Shown one piece after another: positions 3,659 to 8,280 of a DNA stretch of 43,350 nucleotides. Below the pieces are notes generated by a model. It made no database searches. It had not been told where the DNA came from and was given only the letters and a program-made list of their open reading frames with translations. How positions within the stretch are numbered: the stretch's first letter is position 1; each line of letters begins with the position of its first letter. Position numbers and translations under genes: made by a program. Source of the DNA: a virus (taxonomy: Duplodnaviria; Heunggongvirae; Uroviricota; Caudoviricetes); the IMG/VR virus record IMGVR_UViG_2703718812_000010. One strand, written 5' to 3'.

Positions 3659-3862
3659 ATGACACAACACATAAAATCCCACAATTCTGAAGCCGACCCG
3701 GAAATTAAGCAGGGGAGGCGTTTTCGTGCGCCTCAGTATGGCTGGTTTCACTATCTGTTCTGTACGATCGATGAGGCAGATATGTGTAACCAGGTGAATC
3801 ATTTGATACCGACAAGGGTTTTAGTGAAAGGAGGTGAAATCACCTGTAAGATGCTGAAATAA
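3659..3862 (+). CDS. hypothetical protein, 67 aa; ends 10 bp before the prophage left terminus
   Basis: ORF only; could be an intact small gene or the remnant of a gene disrupted by the insertion. Confidence 0.3.
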   Translation: MTQHIKSHNSEADPEIKQGRRFRAPQYGWFHYLFCTIDEADMCNQVNHLIPTRVLVKGGEITCKMLK

Positions 3863-3871
3863 AACAGGTGA

Positions 3872-3975
3872 TGTATACTTCGGACGGAAAACTCTTTTTG
3901 ATACCGACTGCTCAACAAATAGTCAAAAGATCAAAAAACGGCGACACATTTGATACTGCTAATTTACCCTTAAAA
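3872..3975 (+). repeat. left end (attL-like) with putative transposase-binding repeats
   Basis: TGTATACTTCGGACGGAAAACTCTTTTTGATACCGA..., with further TTTGATAC-type copies downstream; an inverted counterpart is found at the right end. Confidence 0.5.
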
Positions 3976-4140
3976 TCTTCTTCAAAACATCTTCAAACTG
4001 CCAAAATGCTCACATAATCGATCTAACTATAATCAGTATGATAATCATCATGAATTACTATTCAATAGCGTGATTATCTTGGGATGAGTCATATGATCTC
4101 TATATGTATTTACAGCACCACCTCATGATAGCGATGGCGC

Positions 4141-4752
4141 TTAACCAACAACATTTTTCTTTACTGTCACTGCCCCTGATTCCTGGGTGGCGTTATTGCT
4201 CGAGTTGTACTTCTCAATAACGCGCAAAATCTCTTTGTCTGTTTCTTCACTTCCCGCCATTCCTATCTTTATTGCATTTTTTAGTACGGGACGTAATGGC
4301 AAGGCATCAATGATGCTTTCTACCGCATCCTGGCTGATTGTAGATGTATTCATTGCTGCCAGCCTGACAAGGTTGTTAGTACCTTCTCGCCTGATGAATG
4401 TAAGGATTAATTGCTTCTCTTGGGGGCTTAGAGAGCTAAGCGCCTGATCAATACCCGAACCTGAATCGCAATTGTTTTCGATTTTTCCGCATTCATCTTC
4501 GTTCTTGCCTGTGGCCAACCATTCGAGTGAACAATTACAGGCTTTAGCTATTAAGGCCAGTTTATCCAAAGGAGGGAAGTTTTTCCCCTTCCTGTAATTT
4601 CTTACTGTGGCTTCAGATAGTCCACAAAGGGTCGCCAGTTCGACGTTTGTCATGTTTCCCATAGCCATAGCTAAGCGTTCTGAAAATCGGTTTATTCCTT
4701 CCATATCAATAAACCGTTCCGCACTGGATACGGTTTTTTCTGCCTTATCCAT
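4141..4752 (-). CDS. prophage repressor, XRE-family HTH (c-gene position)
   Basis: Leftward gene divergent from ner-A-B; HTH_XRE-like segment MTNVELATLCGLSEATVRNYRKGKNFPPLDKLALIAKACNCSLEWL; 3' end about 270 bp from the left terminus, as for Mu c. Confidence 0.7.
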   Translation of the reverse strand: MDKAEKTVSSAERFIDMEGINRFSERLAMAMGNMTNVELATLCGLSEATVRNYRKGKNFPPLDKLALIAKACNCSLEWLATGKNEDECGKIENNCDSGSGIDQALSSLSPQEKQLILTFIRREGTNNLVRLAAMNTSTISQDAVESIIDALPLRPVLKNAIKIGMAGSEETDKEILRVIEKYNSSNNATQESGAVTVKKNVVG

Positions 4753-4908
4753 ATAACCCCCTATAAAACAAAGAAATTATCAACATCGCATTTAATTTCG
4801 ATGTGCTCGCAAAAAACCGTTGATATCGAATTATTTTGCGATTATGATTTACCTAAATCGATAACCGGTTTTGATTATCGGTTCAGGTAAACATGAGAGG
4901 ATCACACA
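4753..4908. promoter_or_regulatory. divergent immunity control region: early promoter plus dyad operators
   Basis: Rightward sigma70-like promoter, -35 TTGATA (4820-4825) and -10 TATGAT (4844-4849) with an 18 bp spacer; two ATCG-N10-CGAT dyads (4785-4802, 4825-4842), the second inside the promoter spacer; a third dyad CGATAA-N10-TTATCG (4859-4880). Confidence 0.5.
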
Positions 4909-5175
4909 ATGAGGGTATCCAGACAAGCATCGAATAATTTGTTTGTTCGAGAGGGGTGTGACTGGTCTGCTAAAGCGGTATATGCAGCCCTTGAAAACAA
5001 AGGCACAGACCTCCCTGAACTGGAAAGGGAGTTAGGATTAAAAAGCGGATCAATGCGCAATGTGTTTTACCGCCAGTGCCGTAAATACGAAGCCGCCATC
5101 GCCGAAAAAATAGGGGTTGAACCTGCTGTAATCTGGCCCAGCAGATACCAGGTGGACGCCAGAGAAGTGGCTTGA
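4909..5175 (+). CDS. ner: Ner-like DNA-binding early regulator
   Basis: 88 aa ORF directly upstream of the transposase, matching Mu ner in position, size and Ner/Nlp-like sequence. Confidence 0.7.
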   Translation: MRVSRQASNNLFVREGCDWSAKAVYAALENKGTDLPELERELGLKSGSMRNVFYRQCRKYEAAIAEKIGVEPAVIWPSRYQVDAREVA

Positions 5176-5185
5176 TGGGGGATGT

Positions 5186-7276
5186 ATGTGGGTAACAGCA
5201 AAAGAATGTGTTGGTCTTCCTGATTTACCAATGATGGAACATAACATTCGCCATCGACTCACAAAAGCAGCTGCGGGAAATGCAGCCATGTTACGCAAAC
5301 GTAAGGGGACAAAAGCAATCGAATTTAATATCGATTGTTTGCCTTCTGGCGCGCAACAAGTATTGCGTGAACGTTATGCCCTTCAACTGATGACGCAAAA
5401 AGCTGATGAATCACCGGCTCCGGTGGTGACAAAGGCCAGACGCTCGCCTGCCGTGGTTGATGCGGTGGAGGCATATCGCGGATCACCACAACTGATGGTT
5501 GAACGCCTTAATGCCCTGACTGAAAACCAGCGCCAGGTGGCTGATGCACGAATCGCGATCGTCAGCGAAGTGATGAAAGTCGCGCAACAACCCGGTTTCA
5601 GCTGTGCGAAAGCTATCCGGTTTATCGTTGACAACCTGGCACGTTCGCAACTGGACGAGCGCATTGTGGCAATGGTTGAGACGGCGAACGCCAAAAAGGG
5701 AAACAGCCGTGCGTTGAGTGAAATAACGCTGAAACGCTGGATTGCGGCCTTTAACAAGGCGCAGAACGCCGCTGAACGCCTGCTTTTACTGGCACCGGGT
5801 AAGCGCCAGGAAATAAAAGCCGAAGATATTAACTGGCTGCCCGAATTTCTGGCGCAGTATCGCCAGTCAAACGGCCGACCAATGACCGAGGCTTACGAGG
5901 ATTTTGTCGCTGAATGGCAGCACCGGCACGCTGATGAGCCTTATATGCTCGATATCATGCCGTCTTATGACACCATTCGCCGCGCAATGAAGAAACTGCC
6001 GGAAGTGGTGAAACAAAAAGGCCGGGTGACCGGCAGTGAATACCGCCAGCTTGAGGGATTCACGCGCCGCGACTGGTCCAGAATGCCGGTGAATTATGTC
6101 TGGATTGGTGACGGTCACGGCATGAAGCTGAAATGCGCACACCCGGTTCACGGTCGGCCATTTGCACCGGAAGTGACCTTTGTTATCGACGGTGGCACGC
6201 GCTTTGTGGTGGGCTGGAGCCTTGACCTGGCTGAAAATGTTTTCGCCGTAGCCGGTGCCATACAGCACGGCATTCGCCATCACGGCAAACCGTTTCTGTA
6301 TTACTCGGATAACGGCTCCGGGGAAACCGCCGACATCCTGGATAAGGAGGTTGTGGGGATACTGCCGCGACTGGGGATTAATCACCCGACCGGGATTGCC
6401 GGTAATCCGCAGGGACGAGGCATTATCGAACGGCTTAACCGCACATTACCGATGCGCATAGCCCGTAAATACCGCACCTATTTCGGGAAAGGTGCAGATC
6501 GCGAGACGTTACGCAAAACCAACCGCGATTTACGCTCGGCATTTACTGCCCTGCAACAGGGCAAACGGCTGAACGCCCGGCAGCAGTCAGCGATGCGTGA
6601 TTTACCGTCCTGGTCTGAACTGATTGATGCCATTCGTGACGGTGTTGAGTGGTACAACAACCGGCCGCACGATGAATTACCGGTGAAGCCGAACGGCAAG
6701 CATTACAGCCCGGCGGAGTTCAGAAAAAAACGCCTGGCGGAAGAGGACACGGAAATTGAATGGCTGTCCGATGTTGAGCTGCGGGATATGTTCCGGCCGA
6801 TGGTGGAACGCCCTGTAAGACGCTGTGAAATACGCTGGCTGAATAATATTTACTACGCGCCCGAGCTGCGTGACGAGCATGGTCGTAAGGTGCTTATCAG
6901 CTATGACATTCATGATGCCGAACGAATTACCGTACGTCGCCTGGATGGCAGCGTGATTTGCGAGGCGGTATGGGACGGTAATAAACGCGAAGCCTTCCCG
7001 GTTAGCGCGGAATACTACAAACAGCAGCAACGCCTTAAAGGCATGCGTAAACGCGCAGAGGAAAAAATCCGTGATGCCGAGGATGAGGTTGTCAACGTGC
7101 TGGAGCACAAGCCGCAGGAGCCCTGGCTGGAAAACATATACCGCCCTGTGGGTAATACGGTGACCGTTCAGCAACCGGTCGCTGACGATGAACCTGATGA
7201 AGAATACGAGCGTAATTTCCAGCGGGGATTGCAGTTGCTGGAAGCGAAATTAAAAGAAAATGACCCGCTGGCCTGA
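5186..7276 (+). CDS. Mu-type DDE transposase (MuA-like), 696 aa
   Basis: N-terminal end-binding-like domain; candidate catalytic triad in WIGDGH / YSDNGS / GIIERLN blocks; size and position match MuA. Confidence 0.9.
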   Translation: MWVTAKECVGLPDLPMMEHNIRHRLTKAAAGNAAMLRKRKGTKAIEFNIDCLPSGAQQVLRERYALQLMTQKADESPAPVVTKARRSPAVVDAVEAYRGSPQLMVERLNALTENQRQVADARIAIVSEVMKVAQQPGFSCAKAIRFIVDNLARSQLDERIVAMVETANAKKGNSRALSEITLKRWIAAFNKAQNAAERLLLLAPGKRQEIKAEDINWLPEFLAQYRQSNGRPMTEAYEDFVAEWQHRHADEPYMLDIMPSYDTIRRAMKKLPEVVKQKGRVTGSEYRQLEGFTRRDWSRMPVNYVWIGDGHGMKLKCAHPVHGRPFAPEVTFVIDGGTRFVVGWSLDLAENVFAVAGAIQHGIRHHGKPFLYYSDNGSGETADILDKEVVGILPRLGINHPTGIAGNPQGRGIIERLNRTLPMRIARKYRTYFGKGADRETLRKTNRDLRSAFTALQQGKRLNARQQSAMRDLPSWSELIDAIRDGVEWYNNRPHDELPVKPNGKHYSPAEFRKKRLAEEDTEIEWLSDVELRDMFRPMVERPVRRCEIRWLNNIYYAPELRDEHGRKVLISYDIHDAERITVRRLDGSVICEAVWDGNKREAFPVSAEYYKQQQRLKGMRKRAEEKIRDAEDEVVNVLEHKPQEPWLENIYRPVGNTVTVQQPVADDEPDEEYERNFQRGLQLLEAKLKENDPLA

Positions 7277-7347: not shown

Positions 7348-8280
7348 ATGACTGATATTAACGATGTAATCAAGACCATTGATGAACTTATTGATGGCGG
7401 CGTACTGACGCAGTATGCCATCGCCAGAGAGGCGGGAATTTCCGACGGCACATTATCGGCTTTCCGTAAGGGAAAATATAAAGGCGATAACGCTGCTGTG
7501 GCTGCTTCCCTGCGTTCCTGGTATGAGAACTGGAATAAACAAAGCGCACTGCCGGAACCGCCGCAGTTTGTGGAAACGCAGACAGTCCAGGAGCTGCGCG
7601 CACTGTTTCAGGCGGTTCGTCTGATGGGCTGTATTAACGTTATTGTGGGCGTACCGGGTGTGGGTAAAACGGCCACTGCCCGTAATTACTGCCAGGAGCA
7701 ACCAAACACCTGGATGATCACCCTGTCACCCGCGCACTCCAGCGTCACGGAGTGTCTGCTGGAGCTGGCCGATGCGCTGGGGATTGATTACACCCGCGCG
7801 AACAAAGGGGCATTATCCCGCGCCATCCGCCGTCGCCTGATGGGAACGCGTGGACTGGTTATTGTGGATGAGGCGGATCATCTTGGTATTGACGGTCTGG
7901 AGCAACTCCGGGCAATTCAGGACGCCACGGGGATCGGGATGGTGCTTATTGGTAACCCGCGCGGATTGTTTAAAGGTGGACGCCGCACCTTTGATGATTT
8001 ATCGCGCCTGTTCAGCCGTCTTGCCCGTACAAAACAACTTCGCAAGGCCAAAAAGGCGGATGTGCTGGCCATTGCCAGGGCGTGGGGGATCAGTGGTGAG
8101 GCCGAGCTGGCCGTCATGCAGGCTATCGCTGAAAAGCCGGGAGCGTTACGCGTTCTGACACATACGCTTAACCAGGCGTGGCTCACCGCCAGCGGTGAAG
8201 GCGCGGCGCTGACAGAAAAACATATTAATGCGGCCTTTAAAGAGGTTTATACCAACCCTGAATTACTCTCACAGGTGTGA
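7348..8280 (+). CDS. MuB-like AAA+ ATPase, transposition target-DNA activator
   Basis: Walker A GVPGVGKT and Walker B LVIVDEADHL; 310 aa; immediately downstream of the transposase. Confidence 0.9.
   Translation: MTDINDVIKTIDELIDGGVLTQYAIAREAGISDGTLSAFRKGKYKGDNAAVAASLRSWYENWNKQSALPEPPQFVETQTVQELRALFQAVRLMGCINVIVGVPGVGKTATARNYCQEQPNTWMITLSPAHSSVTECLLELADALGIDYTRANKGALSRAIRRRLMGTRGLVIVDEADHLGIDGLEQLRAIQDATGIGMVLIGNPRGLFKGGRRTFDDLSRLFSRLARTKQLRKAKKADVLAIARAWGISGEAELAVMQAIAEKPGALRVLTHTLNQAWLTASGEGAALTEKHINAAFKEVYTNPELLSQV

Follow-up and report, generated by a model that had tools for sequence, protein, structure and literature searches.

How is a Mu-like prophage kept quiet when its repressor and its transposase do not recognize DNA through homologous domains? 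In phage Mu, early transcription and the transposition enhancer are both silenced by a repressor whose DNA-binding domain and the transposase N-terminus are paralogues. The question is raised by the left end of a Mu-like prophage in IMG/VR virus record IMGVR_UViG_2703718812_000010, a stretch of 43,350 bp that we refer to, at its full length, as the window. An initial annotation of positions 4141-4908 had described a repressor with a classical XRE/lambda-type helix-turn-helix (HTH) facing a transposase with a Mu-type N-terminus, and repeated ATCG-N10-CGAT dyads in the spacer between the repressor gene and ner. We find it highly probable that this region decides between lysis and lysogeny in an active, transposable prophage of the Mu type, and that its XRE repressor has palindromic operators of its own. 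Functions were assigned from homology, site statistics, and comparison of related loci, and should be read as predictions.

The predicted immunity repressor is encoded in the c position by an open reading frame of 203 amino acids (4141-4752, minus strand), in which an XRE HTH is followed by a variable linker, a helical C-terminal domain, and a disordered tail. The XRE/Cro-C1 DNA-binding domain (codons 25-85, 4498-4680, minus strand) carries the recognition helix SEATVRNYRKGK, which defines group A below. In Pfam, residues 25-85 scored above the cut-offs for both Phage_CI_repr (38.4 bits, cut-off 22) and HTH_3 (36.8 bits, cut-off 23), and a profile of the repressor family matched the solved structures of 434 repressor (E=1.9e-5) and P22 C2 (E=3.4e-4), as well as 434 Cro. 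A domain search had been named in the initial annotation as the check on its lambda-type HTH; that search recovered the XRE fold and did not recover the Mu-type winged helix, with PF02316 absent from the repressor in Pfam and a BLASTP comparison with Mu Rep giving E=2.6. Residues 1-191 also matched positions 5-187 of the 189 in the PHROG 3037 profile, "transcriptional repressor" (E=3.3e-59).

The helical C-terminal domain (codons ~104-188, 4189-4443, minus strand) forms a conserved block in the alignment of the repressor family and on its own matches PHROG 3037 at E=2.7e-25. It matches no Pfam family, and the S24 peptidase domain was absent from the repressor. An AlphaFold model of the C-terminal half is all-helical (pLDDT 71, pTM 0.31), with residues 189-203 forming a disordered tail, and a PDB fold search using the model of the C-terminal domain returned nothing at E<=0.001. 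We presume that the domain is a module for oligomerisation or regulation. The flexible tail is lysine-rich, with VKKNVVG here and VKKAV in Mu. Full-length homologues are found in Escherichia coli, Salmonella, Klebsiella, Morganella, Providencia, and Proteus, and across them the N-terminal HTH is variable while the C-terminal block is conserved.

The transposase (696 amino acids, 5186-7276, plus strand) is of Mu type, with matches to Mu-transpos_C (E=1.5e-17) and HTH_Tnp_Mu_1, and its residues 1 to ~63 form a winged helix of the I-alpha type. As a single sequence, it passed the Pfam cut-off for HTH_Tnp_Mu_1 only marginally (24.3 bits vs 23.3). A profile built from nine transposase N-termini, however, matched the I-alpha domain of MuA (1TNS) at E=2.5e-9 and the DNA-binding domain of Mu Rep (1G4D) at E=2.9e-4, and the N-terminus can be aligned with that of MuA by eye, in agreement with the earlier description. 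With an XRE domain in the repressor and an I-alpha domain in the transposase, the two proteins would not recognize DNA through homologous domains.

The spacer between c and ner contains the two ATCG-N10-CGAT dyads originally described, which lie exactly 40 bp apart, start to start. The putative operator O1 (ATCGCATTTAATTTCGAT, 4785-4802) matches the palindrome TCGAAATTAATTTCGA at 14 of 16 positions and is centred ~61 bp upstream of the predicted start of the early transcript. The putative operator O2 (ATCGAATTATTTTGCGAT, 4825-4842) is a weaker palindrome (11/16) that fills the spacer of a Pe-like early promoter, TTGATA-17-TATGAT (4820-4848, plus strand). This promoter has 10 of 12 consensus positions, with a -35 element at 4820-4825 and a -10 element at 4843-4848, lies at the same position as Pe in Mu, and reads into ner, the transposase gene, and MuB. 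The dyad was correctly placed inside a strong rightward promoter by the initial annotation, but the promoter spacer, which O2 occupies exactly, is 17 nucleotides long rather than 18.

Two further copies of the dyad had been missed. One, the putative operator Oc (ATCGCAATTGTTTTCGAT, 4465-4482), lies 320 bp to the left of O1, within the linker codons of c. The other, the operator-like OA (ATCGAATTTAATATCGAT, 5318-5335), lies 493 bp right of O2 in the I-alpha region of the transposase gene, where it encodes I-E-F-N-I-D. The window as a whole holds five copies of ATCG-N10-CGAT against 0.81 expected, a number reached in none of 100 shuffles, and four of the five cluster within 870 bp (4465-5335) as Oc, O1, O2, and OA. 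All four of these are AT-rich in the centre and approach the palindrome TCGAAATT-AATTTCGA; the motif has 16 bp and is close to TCGAAATTAATTTCGA. Matches of at least 13/16 to the 16-mer palindrome number four in the window compared with 0.16 expected (P<0.003 in shuffles of the local region). This consensus was derived from the sites themselves, and the independent statistic is the count of ATCG-N10-CGAT.

The dyads follow the type of the repressor HTH across related loci. Closer relatives were found through exact-protein look-ups, and a scan of species-representative genomes gave seven distant loci. The relatives that we looked up all share the same context of c divergent from ner, a spacer of ~156 bp, ner, a Mu-type transposase, and MuB. 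We sorted their repressors by recognition helix into group A (SEATVRNYRKGK; the window, P0003-6, P0023, and P0037), group B (SETTIRKYLQGK), and group C (SEATIRKYIAGK), with P0043, which has an unrelated HTH, as an outlier. Six loci represent group A (the window, L010, L012, L014, L015, and L020), and one locus each represents group B (L016), group C (L018), the P0043 type (L019), and Mu_JNE082796 (L002). A palindrome was present at the O1 position in all six group-A loci, and at least four of them also have O2 at the 40-bp spacing. This spacing is kept in L015 (+45/+85), even though an 11-bp insertion there shifts both sites. Oc was also present in six out of six, at ~286-289 bp into the c gene. 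Neither the intragenic nor the intergenic palindromes were found in L016, L018, L019, or L002.

Oc provides a test of whether the DNA or the protein is conserved. The site sits in the hypervariable stretch that encodes the linker, yet the six loci agree completely at 11 of its 16 columns, compared with one to three in neighbouring windows of 16 nucleotides and six to nine in the part encoding the HTH. Such invariance within an otherwise unconserved linker points to selection on DNA rather than on protein. OA shows a less uniform pattern: L010 and L014 retain it, L012 has a weaker form, and group-A loci of the Morganella type lack it. In group B, the transposase gene encodes I-E-Y-H-I-D through ATT GAG TAT CAC ATC GAC and has no OA site. 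We treat OA as a probable auxiliary site.

Comparison of L015 (group A) with L018 (group C) separates the repressor from its neighbours. The flanks of these loci are 96.8-98.3% identical, and Ner and the transposase N-terminus each show one difference over the aligned stretches. Divergence is limited to ~460 bp at the start of c and ~116 bp within the spacer, covering exactly the DNA-binding domain, linker, and operators. The palindromes thus travel with the DNA-binding domain of the repressor and not with Ner or the transposase. Judged from these boundaries, the recombining unit is the DNA-binding domain, the linker with Oc, O1 and O2, and Pe. Relative to Mu_JNE082796, the differing segment is longer (~3959 to 5312) and ends ~60 codons into the transposase gene, so that I-alpha is included; OA falls within this segment. 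Together with the group B and C relatives and a sister prophage that has a Mu-type repressor domain, described below, this comparison upholds the earlier view of a mosaic immunity region, in the form of a replaceable cassette. It is also supported by these patterns that the dyads are the operators of the repressor, following its HTH type.

The spacers of L016 and L018, in the equivalent of 4780-4845, contain a larger dyad, ACAATAAWCCGA-N15-TCGGAYTATTGT, centred on the -35 element of the early promoter. The left half of O2 in the window resembles one arm of this dyad, which suggests that the operators diverged from a common ancestor.

Domain shuffling was also evident within the repressor protein. 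An exhaustive HMMER search with the C-terminal half of the repressor returned 17 cluster representatives, most of which have an XRE-type HTH. Two, however, carry a Mu-type winged helix, namely P0070 (PF02316, 50 bits) and P0081 (32 bits). The C-terminal domain of P0070 is 56% identical to that of the window repressor (E=9.5e-16), with 82% DNA identity over 113 bp, and residues 5-130 of P0070 align with the Mu Rep family (hhalign probability 97.6%, E=3e-12). P0070 is the c-position product of a Mu-like prophage (loci L023/L024) that has the same gene order as the window and matches it at 79% DNA identity in MuB and in the transposase from about residue 62 on. In contrast to the window, this prophage shows the classical pairing of Mu and D108, with 55% identity between the repressor DNA-binding domain and the N-terminus of the transposase (E=2e-19); its Ner is shorter (70 amino acids), and its spacer is AT-rich with other repeats. 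These fusions confirm the mosaic at the level of protein domains, and they indicate that DNA-binding domains of both the Mu style and the XRE style occur on one prophage backbone and with one C-terminal domain. Direct homology between the C-terminal domain of the window repressor and Mu Rep was looked for and was not significant (BLASTP E=2.6; hhalign E=0.03-0.05, probability 1%). The links to Mu Rep are indirect, running through P0070 and through the L002 repressor, which aligns with the Mu Rep C-terminus at 40% probability (E=3e-4) and with the window repressor family at 96.6%.

The distribution of the element is that of a mobile prophage. The immunity cassette is present as a single copy in 34 of 5,426 complete E. 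coli genomes, and we count the prophage as active because these copies occupy many different insertion sites at 98.8-100% identity. The same number of complete E. coli genomes match the window from 3783-3785 onward (98.3-100% identity), and the flanking genes vary by genome, including ycjP, glrR, cho, etk, betT, other prophages, and one plasmid. Variable flanks of this kind are the signature of a transposing element. In all 34 cassette-bearing genomes, the repressor and ner are labelled just "helix-turn-helix domain-containing protein".

A different palindrome lies closer to ner. The initial annotation had reported a third dyad near the start of this gene; a palindrome does exist there, but its motif is CGATAA-N10-TTATCG and not ATCG-N10-CGAT. 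It spans 44 bp (4848-4891) as TTTACCTAAATCGATAA-N10-TTATCGGTTCAGGTAAA, with arms of 17 nucleotides that are 88% complementary and a gap of 10 nucleotides around a core of CGATAACC-N6-GATTATCG. The palindrome spans the predicted start of the Pe transcript. The adjacent ner-like gene (4909-5175, plus strand) encodes 88 amino acids with a match to HTH_35 in Pfam (E=1.7e-20) and to PHROG 769. The core is present with repressors of groups A, B, and C, all of which accompany a Ner type of 88-92 amino acids, and is absent from L002 and L019, whose Ner is of another type. L012 and L014 have arms that match at 17/17 positions. Symmetry also continues upstream of the predicted transcript start, and this points to a protein site rather than an RNA hairpin. 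Most likely, given this pattern of occurrence, the 44-bp palindrome is an operator for the Cro-like Ner. There is a likeness to Mu, where Ner sites also span the Pe start; the Mu record annotates Ner-binding regions, and boxes AGCTAGCTAAGT-6-ACTTAGTTAAAT are visible. We considered whether the outer arms ATTTACCTAAAT correspond to the Mu Ner box (AGCTAGCTAAGT, ACTTAGTTAAAT), but rejected this, as the spacing is 22 bp rather than 6 and the arms are lost in Morganella-type loci. The assignment to Ner is accordingly based on the palindrome core.

From these features, a working model of the switch can be proposed. Repressor dimers would bind palindromes of 16-18 bp close to (A)TCGAAATT-AATTTCGA(T). 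Occupancy of O2 would exclude RNA polymerase from Pe and keep ner, the transposase gene, and MuB off, while O1, Oc, and OA would probably add cooperativity or looping via the C-terminal domain of the repressor. The target of Ner would be the 44-bp palindrome that spans the start of the Pe transcript. Related prophages exchange the DNA-binding domain, the linker, Oc, O1, O2, and Pe as one cassette, which would set the immunity type. Because the S24 peptidase domain is absent, induction probably does not proceed by RecA-driven self-cleavage. We conjecture that it instead resembles induction of Mu, with proteolysis of the repressor through its lysine-rich C-terminal tail.

Other explanations of the palindromes were considered. 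The TCGAAATT-AATTTCGA sites could be the transpositional enhancer, bound by I-alpha and not by the repressor. The Mu enhancer overlaps the operators (PMC3145075) and is a target of I-alpha (PMC3362531), a domain that the window transposase keeps and that has been swapped along with the rest of the segment differing from Mu_JNE082796; additionally, we did not identify an enhancer candidate other than the palindromes. The palindromes do not, however, follow the type of I-alpha, as L015 and L018 have nearly identical transposase N-termini and only L015 has the palindromes, and perfect palindromes of 14-16 bp suit an XRE dimer better than the Mu winged helix, whose sites in the Mu spacer are asymmetric and present in several copies. 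We therefore regard an enhancer as very unlikely. It is also unlikely, although the initial annotation implied it, that one repressor uses the 44-bp palindrome as an operator alongside O1 and O2, with Ner acting elsewhere or not at all in this spacer. Half-sites with an ATCG core recur in the 44-bp palindrome (ATCGAT at 4857-4862, TTATCG at 4875-4880), and three operators in a divergent spacer would give a lambda-like pattern. Yet the CGATAA...TTATCG core stays the same across the three recognition-helix groups (A, B, and C) and persists in L018, where O1 and O2 have been replaced, it is missing only where the Ner/I-alpha type changes (L002, L019), and its geometry of 17-bp arms around a 10-bp gap differs from that of a 16-bp palindrome. 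Finally, the dyads could have arisen by chance from an AT-rich spacer and from codon choice, with Pe controlled elsewhere. The region is indeed AT-rich, OA falls in conserved codons, and a 14/16 match occurs in an unrelated DUF1378 gene at 40600. Against chance are the excess and clustering of copies given above, the conservation of the sites in position and sequence among prophages whose repressors share just 48% identity, including within an otherwise unconserved linker, and their absence from heteroimmune relatives, and we consider this explanation extremely improbable.

Several observations fit less well with operators of an XRE repressor and a separate Ner site. O2 is a poor palindrome (11/16) whose left half is common to group B and C loci, and its conservation may be due in part to ancestry or to constraint on the promoter. 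The left arm of O1 is not TCG in close relatives (TAG, CAT), and the 40-bp spacing between O1 and O2 corresponds to ~3.8 helical turns, a non-integral number. OA could partly be a coding coincidence, since its codons are conserved and it is missing from the Morganella-type group-A loci. A leftward sigma-70 promoter for c with at least 9/12 consensus positions was not found in the spacer. Weak candidates were seen by manual reading (GATAAT at 4781-4776, which is without a -35 element, and TTTAGG-16-AATAAT), and we did not assign either. Lastly, Ner type and transposase I-alpha type change together in our sample, so the assignment of the 44-bp palindrome to Ner is not separable from I-alpha.

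Two repeats outside this set were examined and set aside. The sequence TCGCAATTATTTTCGA at 40600-40615 matches the operator palindrome at 14/16, differs by one base from the intragenic site at 4466-4481, and is of a kind expected 0.01 times per window. It lies in an accessory gene of 59 amino acids of the DUF1378 family, between the tail genes and com/mom. This gene is found in 41 E. coli genomes, some of them without the cassette, and is absent from some that have the cassette, so the match is probably a coincidence. An inverted repeat of 23 nucleotides (4758-4780/4934-4956, 83% complementary) brackets the spacer and was considered as pairing the ribosome-binding site of the repressor gene in a long leader RNA. 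It is not kept in relatives and is probably due to chance.

The pairing of an XRE repressor with an I-alpha transposase bears on how transposition is silenced. A search of 3700-5500 for the IHF consensus WATCAANNNNTTR gave zero matches. In Mu, repressor and transposase use their homologous domains to compete for a single operator/enhancer. One possible reading, which we find rather doubtful, is that this link has been broken in the present lineage, with the XRE repressor controlling a transposase that still has I-alpha, and with the enhancer either silenced in another way (for example, by an Oc-OA loop enclosing it) or no longer silenced at all. A separate observation is that AAACCG/CGGTTT occurs five times in 270 bp (4688-4871) compared with ~0.34 expected, with a loose consensus of AAWAAACCGTT. 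Two copies are in the spacer, and the other three fall in conserved codons within 65 bp of the start of c. It is possible that this hexamer is a second protein-binding motif, for instance for I-alpha or an enhancer.

The locus shares its overall plan with Mu and D108, in which the phages' own operators O1-O3 double as the enhancer. The early region is in Mu order, with c (4141-4752, minus strand), a 156-bp spacer, ner, the transposase gene, and MuB, and corresponds to the left end of those phages, which have a leftward c, a spacer of ~150-170 bp, ner, transposase genes A and B, and a divergent early promoter. We found an HTH_35 Ner, a DDE transposase with a Mu C-terminal domain and I-alpha, MuB (a MuB-like AAA+ transposition protein, 7348-8280, plus strand; Phage-MuB_C in Pfam, E=2.5e-25), and a divergent repressor at the left end, itself with a helical C-terminal part and a lysine-rich tail as in Mu. 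The immunity segment reaches the first ~60 transposase codons when compared with a heteroimmune relative, and Mu and D108 likewise differ from each other into the start of the transposase gene. The differences are that the window repressor has an XRE HTH and not the PF02316 winged helix, that the window spacer has no IHF consensus, and that its operators are palindromic, whereas the Mu spacer shows asymmetric repeats, which we take to be of the CTTTTYAGTAA type.

The initial annotation presented this arrangement as a contrast with Mu and D108. An XRE repressor beside a Mu-type transposase holds, but its novelty was overstated, as CI/XRE repressors are normal in other transposable phages (PMC9936078). 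In Pseudomonas phages of the D3112/MP22/JBD and B3/Fc02 groups, a repressor with an XRE/CI HTH likewise sits at the left end, and its gene diverges from ner and the gene for a Mu-type transposase. For Fc02, the HTH is lambda-CI-like and the repressor was confirmed genetically with a temperature-sensitive mutant (PMC9936078), and variable repressors define the immunity groups of Pseudomonas transposable phages (PMC4378225). Records of the D3112/JBD group annotate a "CI-like repressor", and similarity to the window repressor is confined to the HTH (44% identity over residues 15-82). The JBD88a repressor combines HTH_3 with Peptidase_S24 (E=8.6e-22) and is of the self-cleaving LexA/CI type, whereas the window repressor has no S24 domain and instead bears the C-terminal domain common to Mu-style repressors.

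With 434, P22 C2, and lambda, the window shares the XRE fold and palindromic operators of 14-18 bp that overlap a divergent promoter region. It differs in that the central sites are a pair spaced by 40 bp and not a set of three at ~23-24 bp. Further differences are the intragenic auxiliary sites, a C-terminal domain unrelated to the S24 fold, and a phage that is transposable and not integrase-based. Putative auxiliary sites a few hundred bp to either side of the promoter recall the FL and FR sites of coliphage 186 CI and the OL-OR looping of lambda. The D3112 and B3 groups already provide known XRE/CI repressors of transposable phages, and the family of the window repressor is catalogued as PHROG 3037. 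We did not find a description of this Enterobacterales repressor family in the literature that we searched. Within that literature, three features appear to be undescribed: an XRE domain on the C-terminal domain common to Mu-style repressors, both cassette types on one backbone, and a conserved operator within the sequence encoding the linker.

The prophage is inserted in DNA of a lambdoid prophage, with a match to Shiga toxin (Stx) phage DNA up to ~3584, adjoining a ygiW-like gene. Its ends lie within 3783-3960 and 42585-42622, and other E. coli matches begin at 3783-3785 with TGTGTAACC. The sequence ATATG at 3780-3784 and 42613-42617 may be a 5-bp target duplication, and the element measures ~38.8 kb. 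The transposase probably binds the ends at repeats of TTTGATACCGAC, of which two lie at 3802 and 3897, a weaker one lies near 3949, and another is inverted at 42585-42596. One copy of the cassette is carried on a 167-kb plasmid (NZ_CP074995.1), and several copies interrupt host genes or other prophages. Near the right end, a palindrome with three GATC sites, AATCGATCG-TTTTTGT-CGATCGATT (41515-41552), lies just upstream of a Com-like zinc-finger open reading frame (41549-41794) and a Mom-like gene (41748-42485). The palindrome resembles the mom promoter region of Mu that is controlled by Dam methylation.

Together, the loci show that a prophage family of E. coli and Salmonella offers Mu-style and XRE designs on one backbone and with one C-terminal domain. 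This natural domain swap makes it possible to ask whether a domain shared between repressor and transposase is needed to keep a transposable prophage quiet. Sister prophages of the P0070/L024 type, which retain the Mu-style pairing, would provide a natural control for the idea that the link has been broken. The DNA-binding domain and its putative operators form a compact, portable cassette that would define heteroimmunity. The element inserts into genes and other prophages in O157 and other Shiga toxin-producing E. coli, and knowledge of the immunity types would improve prophage typing.

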